This document shows, one piece after another, positions 1-61,344 of a stretch of DNA of 64,000 bases (position 1 is the stretch's first letter; each line of letters begins with the position of its first letter). The stretch is from Escherichia phage HY03, in sequence record NC_031047.1; one strand, written 5' to 3'. The position numbers and the translations under genes are program-made. The notes beneath the pieces are model-generated. The model had not been told where the DNA came from. It saw only the letters and a program-made list of their open reading frames with translations, and searched no databases.

Positions 1-33
1 TATAATTGGTCGAGGCAGAAGGATTCTAACCTT

Positions 34-64
<31 letters not shown>

Positions 65-86
65 ACAATTGAGCTATGCCCCGTAA

Positions 87-1297: not shown

Positions 1298-1930
1298 TTA
1301 TTTATTACGTGAAAAAGACTGTTCTATCAATTCTGGACACTTTCGTTCTATCCATTTTCTAGCTTTTTGTGGGCTTATACCTATTATTTTAGCAGCTTTA
1401 CTAACCCATCCAAATTTAGAATAATCGATTTTAACTAATTCTTCGTAAATTTCATCAGTTAAAATCTTTTCATTAATATTTACCAGTAAATGATATAATT
1501 TGTTATCATTAGCAATTTTAATGAATCTTTTATAGTTTCCGCCTTTACTTAAACCTAATGAAGTAATTGCAGATGATATAGTAGCCGAATTTAATAATGC
1601 GTTTAAAATTTCTTCATCACTAACATTATAACGCTTTTTATTATTTTTAATATTTTTACCAGCAAAAGTATCAGTTTGCGAATGACAGTTTGGACATAAT
1701 AATCTTAAATTTGATTTAAGATGATTTTTGTTATTTCCATCAATATGGTCTAATTGCAGAACAATATGCTTATTTTGCCATTTTGAAATTTTACAAATTG
1801 CACACTCATATGGAAAAATATTTTCTTTTATTATTTTGTCTTTCAGCTTTCCTGTACTAAAATTTGGATGTTTTCCTTCAAAAATTTCAGCTAATTTAGT
1901 ATCCATAATATGATTCCCAATTATTAACAA
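1298..1930 (-). CDS. HNH homing endonuclease
   Basis: 210 aa; HNH motif CAICK...LQLDHIDGNNKNHLKSNLRLLCPNCH; abuts tRNA-Leu where T4 carries tRNA-Gln. Confidence 0.65.
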   Translation of the reverse strand: MLIIGNHIMDTKLAEIFEGKHPNFSTGKLKDKIIKENIFPYECAICKISKWQNKHIVLQLDHIDGNNKNHLKSNLRLLCPNCHSQTDTFAGKNIKNNKKRYNVSDEEILNALLNSATISSAITSLGLSKGGNYKRFIKIANDNKLYHLLVNINEKILTDEIYEELVKIDYSKFGWVSKAAKIIGISPQKARKWIERKCPELIEQSFSRNK

Positions 1931-2016
1931 AGGCTCTCAAACAAGAACCCTTGATGATAGAGGGTATTAATCAGTGCGATATGAGTTAATAATAACAAAT
2001 AATTCTTAAAGCATAT

Positions 2017-2304
2017 TTACCATTTATGATGATACGTATTTACGATACATTCAAGACCCAAAGGATTCTTGAAAATATCATATTCAAGAGGACCTTTTTC
2101 TGTTTCAATAAAGAAATCAAAATTTACTGTATTAAATTTACGGTCTTCCTTCACTAATTTAACTTGAGAAGATGAACGGTCAACATAAACCTTTTCAACT
2201 TCAAAACATGTTAAAACGCCATAATCATCAATCAAGGCTTTAGCCGCGTCTTGATCATATTTATATCCATTTTCAATGGACGATACTTTAGCATAAAGAA
2301 TCAT
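2017..2304 (-). CDS. hypothetical protein (95 aa)
   Basis: ORF packed between neighbours on the early strand; no recognisable motif. Confidence 0.45.
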   Translation of the reverse strand: MILYAKVSSIENGYKYDQDAAKALIDDYGVLTCFEVEKVYVDRSSSQVKLVKEDRKFNTVNFDFFIETEKGPLEYDIFKNPLGLECIVNTYHHKW

Positions 2305-2307
2305 TAT

Positions 2308-2688
2308 TTACCCTTCATCAACAATAGTATGAGTGTGGGCATTTACAATTTGCCACCAATCAAAGCGATTAGAACCATACATTGGTTTGTTCTCATTTTC
2401 TTTGATAAGGTCACGGAGTTCATCTTCGGTAGCGGCTTTCGCGATTAAATCAGCATATCCACCGCGAGGATAATAATTATCACCTGCAAAAAGTAAAAAG
2501 TTCGGTTTAATATTATTGAACTCTTCAAGAGTAATAACTGTTCCACCAGGTTGAACAATATCTACATATTTATATCCCAATTTTTGGGCAGCATCTACTG
2601 CTTCAAGCAAAGTATCATGAGCCCATCCAATTTGACAACCTGGCTTTTCAGATGGATTAGCCTGATAATCCGCGTACACTTTATACAT
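2308..2688 (-). CDS. hypothetical protein
   Basis: ORF 2308..2727; likely start at internal Met (MYKVYADYQ) which avoids overlap with upstream ORF. Confidence 0.45.
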   Translation of the reverse strand: MYKVYADYQANPSEKPGCQIGWAHDTLLEAVDAAQKLGYKYVDIVQPGGTVITLEEFNNIKPNFLLFAGDNYYPRGGYADLIAKAATEDELRDLIKENENKPMYGSNRFDWWQIVNAHTHTIVDEG

Positions 2689-2951: not shown

Positions 2952-3239
2952 TTACAAAAGATTTTTAGCAATAATTTTGAGCTGAGCTACTGAAATATGC
3001 TTGGCTTTAAACAAAGCAGTTTCTTCAGCAGGAGAGATAACGATTGTAGCACCATCCTTTTTAGCAGACCACCCATCGCCTAGGTAAACAGTACCTTTGA
3101 TTTCTTCGCCATCAACCAGACTAATCATTGGTTTACCTTCTCGTCCTTTATTTGCTTTAATAACTTCAGAAGTAAGAGTAGCTTCGGTAATGGTAGAAAC
3201 CGGGGTAGTTGTAGAAGTAAACTCTTTGAAAGTTTTCAT
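2952..3239 (-). CDS. ipI: internal protein I (IPI), capsid-targeted and injected
   Basis: 95 aa; N-terminal capsid targeting sequence MKTFKEF...ITE|A, cleavage leaving 76 aa as for T4 IPI; next to 57B. Confidence 0.75.
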   Translation of the reverse strand: MKTFKEFTSTTTPVSTITEATLTSEVIKANKGREGKPMISLVDGEEIKGTVYLGDGWSAKKDGATIVISPAEETALFKAKHISVAQLKIIAKNLL

Positions 3240-34103: not shown

Positions 34104-34528
34104 TGCTTCTGATCCCTGAAACTCATGAATTAGTTCTCGAGAATGTCGAAGCACTTATTCCTGAAGCACAGGGTCGCTTTGACGAATTGTCTTCTGCTTT
34201 AAATAAAGACGATATAAATACAATTGTCGAGAATATGCTTGATGATGAAACTGATTTAGCGGTTGCATTAGCTTCTATTAATGAAAATATGCCGTTAAAT
34301 GAATTTATCGTTAAACATGTTTCTGCCCGTGGTGAAATTACTCGCACTAAAGATCGCAAAACCCGCGAACGTAATGCATTTCAAACTACCGGGTTGTCTA
34401 AAGCAAAACGTAGACAAATTGCTCGTAAAGCTACCAAAACGAAGATTGCCAATCCAGCAGGTCAATCTCGTGCTCAGCGTAAGCGTAAAAAAGCTCTTAA
34501 ACGCCGTAAAGCATTAGGATTAAGCTAA
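34103..34528 (+). CDS. 68: gp68 prohead core protein
   Basis: 141 aa as T4 gp68. Confidence 0.85.
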
Positions 34529-35166
34529 TGAATGAACCCCAATTACTAATTGAAACTTGGGGTCAACCTGGCGAAATTATTGATGGCGTACCAATGCTTG
34601 AATCTCATGATGGAAAAGACTTAGGTTTAAAACCGGGTTTATACATCGAAGGAATATTCATGCAAGCGGAAGTCGTCAATAGAAATAAACGTCTTTATCC
34701 AAAACGTATATTAGAAAAAGCGGTAAAAGACTATATTAATGAGCAAGTTTTAACTAAACAAGCTCTCGGAGAATTAAATCATCCTCCACGCGCTAATGTT
34801 GACCCGATGCAAGCCGCTATCATTATAGAAGATATGTGGTGGAAAGGAAATGACGTATACGGACGAGCTCGTGTTATTGAAGGTGACCACGGTCCTGGAG
34901 ATAAATTAGCAGCTAATATTCGTGCCGGATGGATTCCAGGAGTTTCTTCTCGTGGATTAGGTTCATTGACTGACACAAATAAAGGTTATCGTATCGTAAA
35001 CGAAGGATTCAAATTAACTGTAGGTGTTGATGCAGTATGGGGTCCAAGTGCTCCAGATGCATGGGTAACTCCTAAGGAAATTACAGAATCACAGACGGCG
35101 GAAGCCGATACAAGTGCCGATGACGCCTATATGGCTCTCGCAGAGGCCATGAAAAAAGCGTTATAA
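34528..35166 (+). CDS. 21: gp21 prohead core protease
   Basis: 212 aa as T4 gp21. Confidence 0.9.
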   Translation: MNEPQLLIETWGQPGEIIDGVPMLESHDGKDLGLKPGLYIEGIFMQAEVVNRNKRLYPKRILEKAVKDYINEQVLTKQALGELNHPPRANVDPMQAAIIIEDMWWKGNDVYGRARVIEGDHGPGDKLAANIRAGWIPGVSSRGLGSLTDTNKGYRIVNEGFKLTVGVDAVWGPSAPDAWVTPKEITESQTAEADTSADDAYMALAEAMKKAL

Positions 35167-35196: not shown

Positions 35197-36006
35197 ATGC
35201 TTAAAGAACAACTGATTGCCGAAGCGCAGAAAATTGATGCTTCCGTTGCTCTTGATAGTATTTTCGAATCAGTTAATATTTCTCCGGAAGCAAAAGAAAC
35301 TTTCGGCACTGTATTCGAAGCTACCGTCAAGCAGCACGCCGTTAAATTAGCTGAATCTCATATCGCTAAAATTGCTGAAAAAGCAGAAGAAGAAGTAGAA
35401 AAAAATAAAGAAGAAGCAGAAGAAAAAGCTGAGAAGAAAATCGCTGAGCAAGCTTCTAAATTCCTTGACCATCTTGCAAAAGAATGGCTCACTGAAAATA
35501 AATTAGCAGTAGATAAAGGTATCAAAGCCGAACTGTTTGAATCCATGCTTGGTGGATTGAAAGAGCTCTTCGTTGAACACAACGTTGTTGTTCCAGAAGA
35601 ATCAGTTGATGTTGTAGCTGAAATGGAAGAAGAACTGCAAGAACATAAAGAAGAATCAGCTCGTCTGTTCGAAGAACTCAATAAGCGTGACGCATATATC
35701 AATTATGTGCAGCGTGAAGTGGCATTGAGCGAAAGTACTAAAGATCTGACTGAGTCTCAAAAAGAAAAAGTCTCTGCTCTGGTCGAAGGTATGGATTATT
35801 CAGATGCATTCTCAAGTAAATTGAGTGCAATCGTAGAAATGGTGAAGAAATCTAATAAAGATGAAAGCACTATTACTGAGAGTATAAATACTCCTGATAC
35901 TGAAGCAGCCGGACTGAATTTCGTCACTGAAGCTGTAGAAGATAAATCTGCACAAGGTGCAGAAGATATTGTAAGTGTATATGCGAAAGTCGCATCTCGT
36001 TTCTAA
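35197..36006 (+). CDS. 22: gp22 prohead scaffold protein
   Basis: 269 aa, Glu/Lys-rich coiled-coil as T4 gp22. Confidence 0.9.
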   Translation: MLKEQLIAEAQKIDASVALDSIFESVNISPEAKETFGTVFEATVKQHAVKLAESHIAKIAEKAEEEVEKNKEEAEEKAEKKIAEQASKFLDHLAKEWLTENKLAVDKGIKAELFESMLGGLKELFVEHNVVVPEESVDVVAEMEEELQEHKEESARLFEELNKRDAYINYVQREVALSESTKDLTESQKEKVSALVEGMDYSDAFSSKLSAIVEMVKKSNKDESTITESINTPDTEAAGLNFVTEAVEDKSAQGAEDIVSVYAKVASRF

Positions 36007-53920: not shown

Positions 53921-54208
53921 TTTGCGGAATGAAATGAAAGCAGAAACTGAAGCAACTAAACTGTCTTCAATATAAACTTCAATTTTTACCGGAGCTTCTG
54001 ACTCAAATTTACCTGTTACTACACCCTGAAAAATACTTTCAGTCTGTTCTGGCTTTGAAAAATTTTCAGAAGGAAAAATTCCGAACTTTTTATCTGTTCC
54101 AAAAATTTTAATAAATTCATCGTAAACCGCTTCGTTAAAAGCATTATCAGCAGGAATAACGCCTTCAACTACAAGTTCTTGACCTAAAAAGCGTAAAGAA
54201 GATTTCAT
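53918..54208 (-). CDS. hypothetical protein (96 aa)
   Basis: Minus-strand ORF convergent with gene 54. Confidence 0.45.
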   Translation of the reverse strand: MKSSLRFLGQELVVEGVIPADNAFNEAVYDEFIKIFGTDKKFGIFPSENFSKPEQTESIFQGVVTGKFESEAPVKIEVYIEDSLVASVSAFISFRK

Positions 54209-54636
54209 TTTGTGTTCCTCATGTTATGTCAGTAAGACTACTATAACACAACACGAGGGACTTGTAAACTACATTTTGAACTTTTTAGTACGCGTAATAG
54301 GCATGCGTCGATTTTATACTGTTTCATTGTTTGAAGAGCAGTATCAAAAACAGCATTAATGACACCAATTGGATTTCCACCCAAGTTTTTAAGCTTAACT
54401 AATGATAGTTTCTAGTTTCTCATTAACACCTATCATTACGATATGCATCATTTTGTCGCCTGGTTTAACGTTTTATCTGTATCACCGCCAGAGGTGTATG
54501 TACAAAATCTAAATCCAGGAAGCACGCTTTCTTCGCCGGCTTGAATAGCAAAAATTTGTGGTATTTTATGCTTAGGATTTAAGTTAACAACCGGCGCCGA
54601 AGCGCCGTCAAATAATTATGTAATAAGTTCCATGAT

Positions 54637-55281
54637 TTATCCTTGAACGAACTTGTAAGGCATGTTTGCAATATCTATGCAAGACGCAATAATTCCAAGA
54701 GATGATTCTACTTTCTGTTTAACATTTGATGAAACAAATGATGCAAAGTCAACTCTGTCTTCTATTTCAATATCACCTGTCATTGCAACTACTTCACCAG
54801 TTTCCATTAGACGGTCACCGTCATAAATTACTGATTCGGTGAGTTCTTCCGTAGTCATAACTTCAGCTTGAATGAGTTTTGTATTATTAAATGTTGTTCC
54901 GTCATTATTAGAAGCATCAGTTATTTTATTAACTTTGACCATCAATCCACGTGGTAGAATAACTTCAGCTTCTGTTGCTATTCCGAGACTTCCTGGATAT
55001 ACAACATTAACTTTATGAGCTCCATCAATTGCCCATCCTATTTGAACTTTAACGTATTCAGGATTTTCTTTATACGCTCTTATTTCGTTTGGATTAATAG
55101 TTATTCCTTCTTCATTTTTATCAACTGTCAATTCATTACGAGCTTCTGGTTCTAAAAGACCGATACCAGCATGTGTAATTCCAAAACGTCCAAAAATGAT
55201 AGGAGTTAAAGAAGTAGATACAAAATTTCTGAAATAGAACACTTTATTTTTAACTAATGCTTCGTATATAGGAGCAGTCAA
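54637..55281 (-). CDS. ADP-ribosyltransferase-like protein, apparently N-terminally truncated (Alt/Mod-like)
   Basis: 214-aa ORF from a TTG start; STS motif (FVSTSLTP) and E-x-E (TEAEV) about 90 aa later, but no upstream Arg-motif region; in-frame stop 5 codons upstream. Confidence 0.4.
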   Translation of the reverse strand: MTAPIYEALVKNKVFYFRNFVSTSLTPIIFGRFGITHAGIGLLEPEARNELTVDKNEEGITINPNEIRAYKENPEYVKVQIGWAIDGAHKVNVVYPGSLGIATEAEVILPRGLMVKVNKITDASNNDGTTFNNTKLIQAEVMTTEELTESVIYDGDRLMETGEVVAMTGDIEIEDRVDFASFVSSNVKQKVESSLGIIASCIDIANMPYKFVQG

Positions 55282-55282
55282 T

Positions 55283-55633
55283 ATGAAAGGTAATGTTTAT
55301 TTAGTAGTTCATGATTTAACATTCTATTTTAATCATAATGATACTGTTATTTCTGAACGTGTAATTAATTTGCTTTATCAGCATGCAGATTATGTTTATG
55401 TCGAAAACGAATATGGTCATTGGCAATTTCTCAAAAATCGTTCATTTGGTTTAGATGGTTACGAATATTTTGATCGTAAAGACCTTTTAGATACAATTCC
55501 GTTATCTACACAATATCAAAATCATAAGTCTTTACATAAATGCCGGCTAATTCGAAATGCTGAATCCGCGTATGAAGCAATTGATTTATGGCGTAAACGC
55601 CGTGAACAGATTGATGCTTTAAAAGAATATTAA
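55283..55633 (+). CDS. hypothetical protein (116 aa)
   Basis: ORF with Shine-Dalgarno GGAG before ATG; begins at the synteny breakpoint. Confidence 0.5.
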   Translation: MKGNVYLVVHDLTFYFNHNDTVISERVINLLYQHADYVYVENEYGHWQFLKNRSFGLDGYEYFDRKDLLDTIPLSTQYQNHKSLHKCRLIRNAESAYEAIDLWRKRREQIDALKEY

Positions 55634-55639
55634 GAAACC

Positions 55640-55995
55640 GGGTCGCTACCGGTAAGTCGTCGGACTGATGTTCCCTGGAGTATAGTTTCCTCCCACAGTT
55701 TTACTGTGTTCTGGCTCTTTACTATTACAGCAGAAACGGCGCACCGAATTATCGATTCGAGGAAATATCTTTGCCATAAGCCGAGTAGCGTTTTTGACGG
55801 AACGTTCGGATATGGTCGAGATATGGCCTTTTAAAAATATTGAGTAGCGTCAACTACTTAATAACCGGGTTCAAATCCCGGCGTTTCGTACAAACACTTG
55901 CCTTAGCAGGTGGAACCCCGACAAGGTTGCCGCAAGGCTTAGCCCTGACCGAAAGGTTGGGGCTTTTTAGTTTGAATCACTCAGAGAATGCTGTT
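55640..55995 (+). ncRNA. candidate structured small-RNA locus
   Basis: About 400 bp with no ORF of 60 aa or more; tRNA-like T-arm CCGGG-TTCAAAT-CCCGG (55864-55880); terminal hairpin CCCTGACC-GAAA-GGTTGGGG plus T-run (55951-55976). Confidence 0.25.
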
Positions 55996-56043
55996 ACGGA
56001 TAATAAATAATTAATAACCAATAAATTATTTCAAGGATTTTAA

Positions 56044-56607
56044 ATGAAAACCTATGCCGAATTTTTAACTGAAGCAGCAAAATTACCATCTGAAGCAGAT
56101 CTTACTAAAGTATTCTTCCACTTGGACCCAAAAGACCGGGGCGATTTTCTTAAGTGGAAAGCTAAAGCTATTGAAATGTATAACATCGATAACAGTTCTT
56201 TTACGATGAGCCAAGAAAATAGTTTCAATAAAGCATTTTTCAAAATTTCTAAGAAATTGGCATCTGGCGCTCAGGTTTCTAAATCTGCATTAGCTACTCC
56301 TGAACGTGCACCTGTTAAAATTTCTAAGAATATGTTTGACACTAAAAAATATGTCAATGCTTTGAATAAAGCTCTTGATGCATTGGATGATGCAAAGAAG
56401 GCAGCCCGCGATCTTCAAGACGTGTATACCGATTTTGATCGTAAAACTAAAGGTTCTATTTCAAATAGCGAACGCAATAGTGTAAGTGTTTATTCTGATA
56501 GCCTTGATGTTCTTGGCGATGCATATACTGAAATTAAAAATCGTATTAACACCGCATCTAAGCTAAAAGCTGCTGCAGAAGCTATAATAACTAAACTAGG
56601 TAAATAA
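56044..56607 (+). CDS. internal-protein-like capsid-targeted protein
   Basis: 187 aa; N-terminal MKTYAEFLTE|A matches the T4 capsid targeting sequence cleaved by gp21. Confidence 0.6.
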   Translation: MKTYAEFLTEAAKLPSEADLTKVFFHLDPKDRGDFLKWKAKAIEMYNIDNSSFTMSQENSFNKAFFKISKKLASGAQVSKSALATPERAPVKISKNMFDTKKYVNALNKALDALDDAKKAARDLQDVYTDFDRKTKGSISNSERNSVSVYSDSLDVLGDAYTEIKNRINTASKLKAAAEAIITKLGK

Positions 56608-56615
56608 TTTTAAAT

Positions 56616-56640
56616 CCCTATCTAAATGATAGGGCTTTTT
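56616..56640 (+). terminator. rho-independent terminator
   Basis: Hairpin CCCTATC-TAAATG-ATAGGG followed by CTTTTT. Confidence 0.55.
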
Positions 56641-56762
56641 GGTATCTAGGCCTTTCCGGGCCTCTCTAGGCATCATTTAGTTTATATCCTTTATAATATA
56701 TTATCCTACCTTTTAATTGCCCCTCCCCGCCCTAAAATTCCCTAAAAATTTTTCACAAAACT

Positions 56763-56792
56763 GTTTACATCCCTGTTCTTCTATGGTACTAT
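56763..56792 (+). promoter_or_regulatory. T4 early-type promoter
   Basis: -35 GTTTAC, 18-bp spacer, -10 TACTAT, upstream of ORF 56836. Confidence 0.55.
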
Positions 56793-56835
56793 ATCAATAT
56801 CAACTACTGATACAGAAAACAACTTGGAGAATAAA

Positions 56836-57099
56836 ATGGATAATTACGGTGAACTGTTCAACTTCTTTATGAAATGTGTTTCAGAAGATTTCGGTCGTAC
56901 AGTGAATGATATTAAAGTTATCGGTCCTGATCATCCGATGTTTGAAACTTACGCAGTAATGGGTAATGAAGATGGTCAGTGGTATACTGTAAAGGTTGTG
57001 ATTAACATGTTCACTGCTGAAGGTTATGTTAAACTGTCTTCTAAAGTTTACCATGATAACGATGAAATCGCAGAAGAATATTTCAATAATATGAAATAA
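56836..57099 (+). CDS. hypothetical protein
   Basis: ORF 56824..57099; ATG at 56836 preceded by GGAGA. Confidence 0.5.
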   Translation: MDNYGELFNFFMKCVSEDFGRTVNDIKVIGPDHPMFETYAVMGNEDGQWYTVKVVINMFTAEGYVKLSSKVYHDNDEIAEEYFNNMK

Positions 57100-57167
57100 T
57101 TGTGTACAAACACCAAGGACGGTGTTATTATAGACTTATCAAAACAAATACAGAAACGGAGAAATAA

Positions 57168-57332
57168 ATGACTACTTTAATTATTTGGTTTGACGAAAAT
57201 GAAGAAACATACTGCGTGAACATTGGCGAAAGCCCAATGCCAGAATTTGAATCTTCGGATAAAAACTCGGTTGTATCTTGGGCTGAAGGTTATAAAGCAG
57301 CAAAAGGCGATGTTGAAATAGTTTACAAATAA
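57168..57332 (+). CDS. small hypothetical protein (54 aa)
   Basis: Below the 60-aa cutoff of the ORF track; ATG preceded by ACGGAGAAATAA; fills an otherwise empty 270-bp gap. Confidence 0.4.
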   Translation: MTTLIIWFDENEETYCVNIGESPMPEFESSDKNSVVSWAEGYKAAKGDVEIVYK

Positions 57333-57375
57333 TACTCTTATGGATTTTAAATCTTAATTAACCTAAGGAAATACT

Positions 57376-57969
57376 ATGAACACACTGAAGAAAATTGTTG
57401 AGTTTATTCGCACTAAACTTGGTTCTGCTATGGCTAAAAATTTATCCGTTGAAGAACAGTATACTGCTGCGGCAGCAAAACTACTTGATAAGATTAAAGA
57501 TCTAAAAACTGCTTCTGTTAAATCTATTAATGAAGAAAAGCGTATTCGTGAACTTATTGTCGAAAAGAATAAGCAGGCCGAATCAAAAGAGCGTGAAATT
57601 CGCAAGCTTCTTTCTGAAGGTCAAGATGTAACAATGCATGCTAAACTTGGTTTGCTATATCGTCGAACAGCTGAACAGTTGACTACTAAAGCTGATGGTT
57701 ATGCTGAAATGCGAATTGAAATCGCCAAGAAAGTAGTTGAGTTAGATGATGCTCGCCAAGAACTTGCAGTTAAATTGGAATATATCCGTGAAACTCGTGC
57801 AGCAAATGCCCTTGGAATTAGTACTGCTGATGATGTAGTTGAAATTGCAGCGCTGACTAAGGTTGATATTGAAGATACTCTTGCTCGAGTTGAAACCTTT
57901 AATGGTAATATTTCTGGGGTTGAAACTACCTCTGCCGATGTTCAGGAATACATTAATTCTCTGAAATAA
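57376..57969 (+). CDS. hypothetical coiled-coil protein (197 aa)
   Basis: Lys/Glu-rich helical sequence; hairpin GGGGCTTAGGCCCC downstream. Confidence 0.5.
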
Positions 57970-60246: not shown

Positions 60247-60777
<531 letters not shown>

Positions 60778-60870: not shown

Positions 60871-61344
60871 ATGAAAACATATCAAGAATTTATTACTGAA
60901 GCAGCTATTAATTCTCAAATTATTGCTGAATCTTTTACTGATCTTTTGAAATTTAAAAAAGGACAGAAAATCACTGCTGTATTGGATGATGGTACAGAAG
61001 TTGAGATGGATGTACAGGGATATAATTATGCAGTAGATGGAAAACTGTATAATAAATCTCATGCTAAATTTGATTCATTTGACGACTTTGTTAATACAGT
61101 TGAAGATGAAAAAACTCGTCGATCCATTGCAACTGGTGATGCTAAGGTTCTTATGGCACATGGTCATGAACGCATTCGCGCTAAACAGAATAAAATGGGT
61201 GAAGATAATTTTGCATTAGTTGGTTATCAATCTGGTAAGCAAACTTATGGCTATCAGCGTACTGCTACCATGTATAATAAAAATGGTAAAATCGCTTTCG
61301 TGAATAGTAAAGGTTCTATTCAGTACGTTAAATCGTTCAAATAA
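60871..61344 (+). CDS. internal protein (ipII/ipIII position) with capsid targeting sequence
   Basis: 157 aa; N-terminal MKTYQEFITE|A is the T4 internal-protein targeting signal; lies beside gene e. Confidence 0.65.
   Translation: MKTYQEFITEAAINSQIIAESFTDLLKFKKGQKITAVLDDGTEVEMDVQGYNYAVDGKLYNKSHAKFDSFDDFVNTVEDEKTRRSIATGDAKVLMAHGHERIRAKQNKMGEDNFALVGYQSGKQTYGYQRTATMYNKNGKIAFVNSKGSIQYVKSFK

Follow-up and report, generated by a model that had tools for sequence, protein, structure and literature searches.

A capsid-targeting-like N-terminus in a cassette gene between rnaC and e.8 of Escherichia phage HY03, a candidate third internal-protein locus of T-even phages

The rnaC–e.8 site and its cassette

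The 64,000-nucleotide stretch of the Escherichia phage HY03 genome analysed here (sequence record NC_031047.1; the whole stretch is called the window) is a T4-like (Tequatrovirus) genome segment, and the gene under study, hereafter the target, is a 187-aa open reading frame (ORF) with an ATG start at 56044..56607 on its plus strand. The encoded protein has the N-terminus MKTYAEFLTEAAKLPSE, with the first residues MKTYAEFLTE|AA, and an earlier note made from the letters of the window had read this start as the capsid targeting sequence (CTS) of the T4 internal proteins. The surroundings are as that note had described them: homologs of rnaD and rnaC lie just upstream (~55640..55960), and the lysozyme gene e (60283..60777) with its adjacent internal-protein (ip) gene lies about 4 kb downstream. 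RB14 and G4498 have the order tRNA-Arg, rnaD/rnaC, the target, e.8 through e, and Ip4, and the window agrees with it from 55283 on.

In T4, the gap between rnaC and e.8 is 285 bp and holds no ORF, and alignment with the window revealed that T4 homology stops directly after GGGGCTTTTT. The T4 junction reads GGGGCTTTTT|GGTATCTAAGCC and the window reads GGGGCTTTTT|AGTTTGAA...ORF...AGGGCTTTTT|GGTATCTAGGCC; in the longer alignment of the indel, T4 has GGTTGGGGCTTTTT|GGTATCTAAGCC and the window has GGTTGGGGCTTTTT|AGTTTGAATC...ORF...GATAGGGCTTTTT|GGTATCTAGGCC, which places the target in a 672-bp cassette (Table 1). The 9-bp direct repeat GGGCTTTTT occurs twice, with the left copy (55960-55968) forming the tail of the rnaC terminator and the right copy (56632-56640) the tail of the target's own terminator.

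The only promoter-like element upstream of the target is the octamer AATAAATA, which has one mismatch to the T4 late consensus TATAAATA, and the promoter scan found no sigma-70-type promoter on the coding strand there. The octamer reads GATAAATA in the RB14 and Bas46 orthologs and AATAAATA in that of Bas37. An exact TATAAATA was observed 31-43 nt before the ATG, just after a terminator, in JS98, KMB17, fHe-Yen9-01, fD1 g140 and Bas37_0244; in the first three of these it stands 31-33 nt before the start codon, in a position equivalent to that of the A/GATAAATA octamer of the target. By these signals, the target gene looks like a late-expressed, autonomous cassette flanked by terminators.

The rnaC/tRNA–target–e.8 order was found in RB14, G4498, Bas37, Bas46, RB69, JS98 and CHI14, with the JS98 and CHI14 family genes located 3′ of the tRNA cluster and 5′ of e.8/e.6-type genes, and KMB17 and fHe-Yen9-01 have a matching neighbourhood around their family member. 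The position, which had been called unexpected, turned out to be a standard syntenic site in most T-even relatives, with the empty gap of T4 as the exception. Since both the target and the paralog g140 of phage fD1 occupy the rnaC–e.8 site, it is, judged by sequence, a third ip-type locus, filled in most T-even relatives and empty in T4.

Table 1. Features of the target gene and of the predicted maturation machinery in the window (CTS, capsid targeting sequence; AF2, AlphaFold2; pLDDT, predicted local distance difference test).
Feature	Position	Strand	Basis and remarks
Target ORF	56044..56607	+	Identical to hypothetical protein HY03_0071 (phage HY03); PHROG 2280 member
Promoter–ORF–terminator cassette, 672 bp, absent from T4	55969..56640	+	Alignment with T4
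Intrinsic terminator closing the tRNA/rnaD/rnaC unit	55941..55969	+	Stem 55941-55964, then T-run; terminator scan
Late-promoter-like octamer AATAAATA	56002..56009	+	7/8 against T4 late consensus TATAAATA; ends 34 nt before ATG
Shine-Dalgarno AAGGA	56033..56037	+	6 nt upstream of ATG; good match, from sequence
Predicted CTS propeptide MKTYAEFLTE	56044..56073	+	Comparison with IPII, IPIII and Ip4; family conservation
Predicted gp21 cleavage after E10	between 56073 and 56074	+	Mature N-terminus AAKLPSEADL...; neo-N-terminal peptide AAKLPSEADLTK
Predicted N-terminal three-helix domain, residues 11-75	56074..56268	+	AF2 pLDDT ~75-86 (helices ~13-75); family-conserved part
Predicted disordered basic linker, residues 76-98	56269..56337	+	pLDDT <50 for residues 79-89
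Predicted C-terminal helical bundle, residues 99-187	56338..56604	+	AF2 pLDDT ~85-94; helices 101-135, 141-153, 158-186
Target gene's own intrinsic terminator	56616..56640	+	Stem 56616-56634, then CTTTTT; scan; annotated terminator in G4498
gp21 prohead protease, predicted CTS-removing enzyme	34528..35166	+	PHROG 207, head maturation protease, E = 8e-76
gp22 scaffolding core protein	35197..36006	+	PHROG 237, E = 2e-93

The CTS-like N-terminus, the protein and its family

Comparison of the N-termini revealed that the target shares seven of its first 10 residues with the CTS of T4 IPII and IPIII (MKTYQEFIAE), with leucine instead of isoleucine at position 8, and eight of 10 with the window's own Ip4-like protein (MKTYQEFITE|AA, encoded at 60871..61344). 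A six-frame scan of the window found three ORFs of at least 90 aa beginning MK[TS][YF], namely the target, the Ip4-like gene and ipI, so the match of the target is not a matter of chance. As reviewed from Black's studies (PMC9026906), the 10 N-terminal residues of IPIII are enough for encapsidation, and mutagenesis has shown that targeting rests mainly on residues 4 and 7 and processing on residues 8 and 10, with gp21 cleaving after L/I-x-E. All of these critical positions are kept by the target, as Y4, F7 (as in IPII and IPIII), L8 and E10, followed by alanine, and its substitutions fall at positions 5 and 9, neither of which is singled out as critical in that review. The gp21 site of the target, L8-T9-E10|A11, follows the form L/I-x-E then a small residue, and the LTE at 8-10 is the sole [LI]-x-E site of the protein. 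In IPIII, an E10D change still allows packaging but prevents the cut. The comparison with IP sequences supports the N-terminus as a bona fide CTS-type propeptide, and the earlier note's observation of the ORF and its MKTYAEFLTE|AAK start is confirmed. CTS-bearing proteins associate with the gp22 scaffolding core (PMC9026906), and both the gp21 protease and the gp22 scaffold are encoded in the target's own window.

The orthologs of the target include RB14ncORF136c, bas37_0243 and bas46_0240. Copies with at least 95% identity were detected in 163 of 50,697 phage records, Tequatrovirus and Mosigvirus included, plus one at 86%, and all of the close orthologs are annotated "hypothetical protein". 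The protein has a full-length profile match to PHROG 2280, a family of unknown function (E = 3.1e-53; target residues 1-181 on profile positions 1-178 of 178), and weak N-terminal matches to PHROGs of internal virion proteins. A word-indexed search of 5.8 billion proteins with the window protein as query returned only near-identical sequences and two chimeras, and an exhaustive HMMER search returned P0016, 29% identical to the target; the distant homologs were obtained only through this exhaustive search and a second one seeded with P0016, and tblastn extended the family. Distant members were found in JS98 and IME08 (Dhakavirus), PG7 and KMB17 (Karamvirus), CHI14 (Winklervirus), fHe-Yen9-01 (Tegunavirus) and Klebsiella phage 15882-6-3 (Jiaodavirus).

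The N-termini of the distant homologs read MKTYNEFLNE|S, MITFNEFLNE|S, MLNFKQFIAE|S, MLQYNEFLKE|S and MLKFKEFISE|A, so that the pattern M-x-x-[FY]-x-[EQD]-[FI]-[LI]-x-E is kept at 17-27% identity across five genera. In an alignment of 13 sequences which, one close ortholog apart, are 17-27% identical to the target, seven columns are nearly invariant, those of F7 and E10 included, and residue 4 is Y or F; in a further family alignment E10 is fully invariant. Many distant homologs carry a second I-T-E|A site a few residues on, as in the 19-residue propeptide of IPI. These data bear on the alternative that the protein is not packaged at all, its CTS-like N-terminus being a relic or recombination scar and its role a late cytoplasmic one, for instance as an assembly chaperone or regulator. 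A recombination origin is conceivable, given that CTS-coding DNA is common to ip genes (29 of the first 36 coding bases are shared by the target and the window's Ip4-like gene), and the essential-like phenotype described below is atypical for internal proteins. However, the critical CTS columns are among the best conserved at ~20% family identity, which is not expected of a relic, the gene has a late-promoter context, and the fD1 paralog g140 has been detected in virions; we regard this alternative as distinctly unlikely.

Without its first 10 residues, the target would be a protein of 177 aa and 19.6 kDa with an isoelectric point (pI) of 9.48, 25 lysines and no cysteine, compared with 183 aa, pI 9.65, 25 lysines and no cysteine for T4 IPIII; the known internal proteins range from pI 9.0 to 9.65. 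The AF2 model, built from a 12-sequence alignment, has a pLDDT of 78 and is all-helical with a disordered CTS; its C-domain (residues 100-186) is predicted with confidence as three helices, at a pLDDT of ~90. The family is modular, consisting of the CTS, a conserved helical N-domain of ~60 aa, a basic linker and a C-terminal bundle. The linker grows to a long Pro/Ala/Lys-rich tract in homologs, and the alignment revealed that the C-terminal module is exchanged for an unrelated C-terminus in some family members.

A known non-packaged homolog, which the earlier note had named as evidence against an internal protein, was looked for in Pfam, NCBIfam, PADLOC, PDB and by Foldseek, and none was found. 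In Pfam nothing passed the cut-off (cytochrome b562 reached 17.6 bits against a cut-off of 30), NCBIfam and PADLOC gave no meaningful match to the target, and the best hit of the PDB profile search had E = 0.055, which is not meaningful. Foldseek returned family members only from BFVD, and from PDB no match with E <2, only generic helical bundles. A short similarity to IPII (FHDLPDKDR against FHLDPKDR) was dropped, with a CTS-free BLASTP E of 2.2.

Two of the sequences returned by the searches are chimeras. Both are metagenome/assembly proteins: in P0010, an unrelated N-terminus is joined to target residues 112-176, and in P0011, target residues 97-122 are joined to a NudE-looking C-terminal region, which would imply a deletion from the target gene to nudE. 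Phage F26 has, besides the intact gene, an extra partial copy ~230 bp 3′ of it. Recombination is active at the cassette.

The literature search found no paper that mentions RB69ORF148c/149c, RB14ncORF136c, Shfl2p135 or the N-terminal peptide of the target, and the accessory-gene lists of Silas et al. do not include the target, only a truncated paralog being listed. The family is carried by most T-even relatives and is "hypothetical" in every annotation; as it is absent from T4, it escaped classical genetics.

Probable packaging, conservation and an apparent requirement in Bas37

Taking together the make-up of the CTS and its conservation, the organisation of the cassette, the synteny, the purifying selection and the physicochemical likeness to internal proteins, all of which are directly established, we consider it somewhat probable that the target is a late-expressed, CTS-targeted, gp21-processed protein that is packaged in the head and injected, and that it belongs to a previously unannotated T4-type internal-protein family at a third ip locus. 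Its late transcription, packaging, cleavage, injection and target are what we infer here. Late in infection, a degenerate late promoter of its own would drive transcription of the gene as a self-contained cassette; guided by the 10-residue CTS, the protein would then enter the prohead's gp22 scaffolding core, and the gp21 protease would cleave behind L8-T9-E10. The basic, Lys-rich helical protein of 177 aa and 19.6 kDa thus freed would remain with the packaged DNA and be ejected into the next host. The earlier proposal of an internal-protein-like gene survives in its CTS and its candidacy, and its claims of position and hypervariability do not.

The hypervariability that had been expected from the known internal proteins does not apply to the target gene, whose orthologs are at least 95% identical, and pairwise ratios of nonsynonymous to synonymous substitution rates (dN/dS) among six orthologs range from 0.03 to 0.13 at dS ~0.10-0.19. 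Variation at the locus arises instead by presence/absence and module exchange. The RB69 record holds a frameshifted copy with a 1-nt deletion at nt 368, and frameshifted or truncated copies are also found in the G29, OE5505 and HZ_ZJUN4 records; these four disrupted copies may reflect sequencing error.

Several observations weigh against a packaged and injected internal protein. The target has no similarity to Ip1-3 past the CTS, IPIII matching at residues 1-12 only, and its octamer departs from the late consensus at the first base. Depletion of [LI]-x-E in the mature regions, a sign of protease exposure, was not observed in 13 family members (14 sites against 14.4 expected). The strong purifying selection is unlike the diversifying picture usual for arms-race internal proteins. 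No virion proteomics, N-terminal sequencing or injection data were found in the literature for the target or a close ortholog, and the fPS-65/fPS-90 paper contains no proteomics. For the paralog, liquid chromatography–tandem mass spectrometry of fD1 virions scored g140 as particle-associated (PMC8309999 Table S3), but with 137 of 277 phage proteins flagged, DenV, NudE and lysozyme among them (PMC8309999), that virion proteome has a low specificity and the evidence on g140 is weak. Lastly, in the HIDEN-SEQ transposon screen (10.1101/2025.11.20.689424, Extended Data Table 7), bas37_0243, confirmed by translation as the target ortholog, has one hit among 48 TA sites (saturation 0.02) and is classed "Essential", in contrast to T4 ipI, ipII and ipIII and the Bas37 ipI-locus genes, which were freely disrupted (10.1101/2025.11.20.689424).

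The flanking genes bas37_0242, 0244 and 0245 were hit at 85-100% of their TA sites, and mean read counts for bas37_0243 were ~0.2 in the competition dataset inspected (10.1101/2025.11.20.689424); in this saturated library, genuinely essential genes have an insertion pattern of the same kind. The authors of 10.1101/2025.11.20.689424 passed over bas37_0243. Its requirement is not explained by McrBC, since the library keeps insertions in the anti-McrBC gene. The essential-like signal is the most surprising fact on the gene and does not fit a simple dispensable anti-restriction accessory.

It might be argued that the insertion gap reflects a cis-acting DNA or RNA element inside the cassette, a toxic effect of truncated or mistimed fragments, or a technical or stock artefact, and that the gene is an ordinary dispensable accessory ip gene, as the preprint does not take it up, T4 lacks it, and natural copies in the RB69, G29, OE5505 and HZ_ZJUN4 records are frameshifted or truncated. 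This explanation appears quite improbable, because a single hit in 48 sites of a highly saturated library looks like the result for a genuine essential gene, the genes on either side carry insertions at 85-100% of their sites, and the few reads that map to bas37_0243 indicate that the gene was present in the stock.

A packaged protein could also be morphogenetic or structural, serving its carriers as a scaffold-core accessory or DNA-condensing protein on which they depend. Such a role would agree with the insertion intolerance of the Bas37 ortholog even on the K-12 background that yielded McrBC-sensitive mutants, with the strongly purifying selection on the target, with its Lys-rich basic composition and the histone-H1-like Pro/Ala/Lys linker of homologs, and with the precedent of IPIII, whose loss halves the head assembly rate and which co-purifies with gp22 (PMC9026906). 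On the other hand, T4 and other phages without the gene assemble normally, the RB69 record carries a frameshifted copy, and the swapping of the C-terminal module is more in keeping with a change of target than with a fixed structural fit. On balance, a structural role seems rather unlikely.

For the CTS-targeted, injected internal protein that we favour, the most likely role, by precedent, would be the neutralising of a host nuclease-type defence at DNA entry, with head assembly or DNA condensation as the main alternative. Ip1, Ip2 and Ip3 of T4 act as inhibitors of GmrSD type IV restriction enzymes, each of a different one (PMC12373910), and the CTS protein Bas37_0260 inhibits McrBC (10.1101/2025.11.20.689424), so that all four CTS proteins with a characterised function inhibit type IV restriction (PMC12373910; 10.1101/2025.11.20.689424). 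As all four inhibit modification-dependent restriction enzymes, each new CTS protein offers a way to find a host defence together with what counters it. The proteins of ip4-10 were assayed without result, and the target was not in that set (PMC12373910).

The tight conservation and the near-absent Bas37 insertions suggest a more basic function than that of the known internal proteins, which are dispensable and fast-changing. It is a tentative and rather doubtful proposition that the target is the first T-even injected internal protein indispensable on ordinary E. coli K-12, either disarming a conserved factor other than EcoKI, McrA, McrBC and Mrr or forming an obligatory part of the head core. 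If true, the K-12 factor disarmed by the target would be one to which T4 is naturally immune, and the rnaC–e.8 site would be a third, family-wide ip locus overlooked by T4-centred work.

Neighbouring elements, the paralog and the known internal proteins

The region around the cassette contains further variable elements. The rnaD (species 2) and rnaC (species 1) homologs (~55640..55960) have, along most of their length, a sequence nearly identical to that of T4; an Rfam scan of 54000-57500 found nothing relevant, and Rfam 15 has no family that detects rnaD/rnaC. Between tRNA-Arg and rnaD lies a 116-aa ORF (55283..55633; PHROG 3355, function unknown), which is present in G4498 and Bas37, is matched by ORFs of the same size in Bas46 and RB69, and is absent from T4 and RB14; with it, the hyperplastic stretch holds a further presence/absence cassette. 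In JS98, the slot 5′ of the family member is taken by orf136 (1877..2431 of the locus sequence L008), which encodes 184 aa with the hydrophobic N-terminus MKLLKYLSWILLVPLDFISMVLAVILAPF... behind its own exact late promoter, and as it has no CTS, not every cassette at the locus encodes an internal-protein-like product.

A breakpoint was observed at ~55281/55282, where a C-terminal alt fragment (54637..55281, minus strand; profile positions 480-674 of 674) abuts the 116-aa ORF. The tRNA-Arg, the usual neighbour of that ORF, is located at window positions 7..83, and in comparison with all T4-like records the segment 55282-64000 is both inverted and out of place. The junction at ~55281 is spanned by none of the 50,697 phage records. 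It looks as if two contigs of the source record had been put together the wrong way round, because the first bases of the window coincide with the other breakpoint; alternatively, the junction may be a real inversion.

The e.6 ortholog of the window (57376..57969) corresponds to bas37_0240, which in the HIDEN-SEQ tables is non-essential on K-12 and is depleted ~100-fold (log2FC -6.49, q = 0) in the first competition dataset, inferred to be K-12 versus uropathogenic CFT073. The depletion suggests a conditional requirement for e.6, possibly as an anti-defence factor; bas37_0240/e.6 is not mentioned in the preprint main text (10.1101/2025.11.20.689424).

The closest relative of the target at the same site is the paralog group of fD1 g140, RB32ORF133c, bas37_0244 and bas46_0241, which was found in 512 phage records against 163 for the target type and is annotated hypothetical. 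The fD1 protein g140 has 157 aa, begins MKSYTQFLNE|A, belongs to PHROG 2280 (E = 4e-60) and is preceded by an exact late promoter. The paralog shares with the target the PHROG, the locus, the CTS-like start, the late promoter after a terminator and a related C-terminal helical module, but differs in having another N-terminal domain and a length of 157 aa, and is absent from the window. Bas37 and Bas46 carry the target ortholog and the paralog in tandem, and the window holds the target only. In Bas37, the paralog bas37_0244 took insertions at 29 of its 34 TA sites and is non-essential, unlike the target ortholog. The idea that the target is an antidote of the tandem paralog was rejected, with the paralog in 512 records and the target in 163, and with fD1 having only the paralog and the window only the target.

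Two other CTS genes occur in the window, an Ip4-type gene (60871..61344, PHROG 3155) beside lysozyme e and a T4-type IPI gene (2952..3239), whose 95-aa product differs from T4 IPI by two residues; no IPII or IPIII homolog was found within the window. The target resembles IPI (Ip1) and Bas37_0260 in being a CTS-bearing product of a polymorphic T-even cassette, and no homology to either was found. Those two proteins differ from the target in locus, their genes lying at ipI between 57B and tRNA.4, and they are non-essential on permissive hosts. The likeness to IPII, IPIII and Ip4 (T2/RB14-type) extends to the 10-residue N-terminal CTS ending in [LI]-x-E|A and to small, basic, Lys-rich, Cys-free products of non-core genes in the e/tRNA region, and the predicted mature size and pI are almost equal to those of IPIII. 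However, the target differs from IPII, IPIII and Ip4 in its locus between rnaC and e.8, in its PHROG (2280 against 7857, 5341 and 3155, the known set also including PHROG 4363), in its modelled all-helical two-domain fold, in its strong conservation, and in having a Bas37 ortholog that is not freely disruptable.

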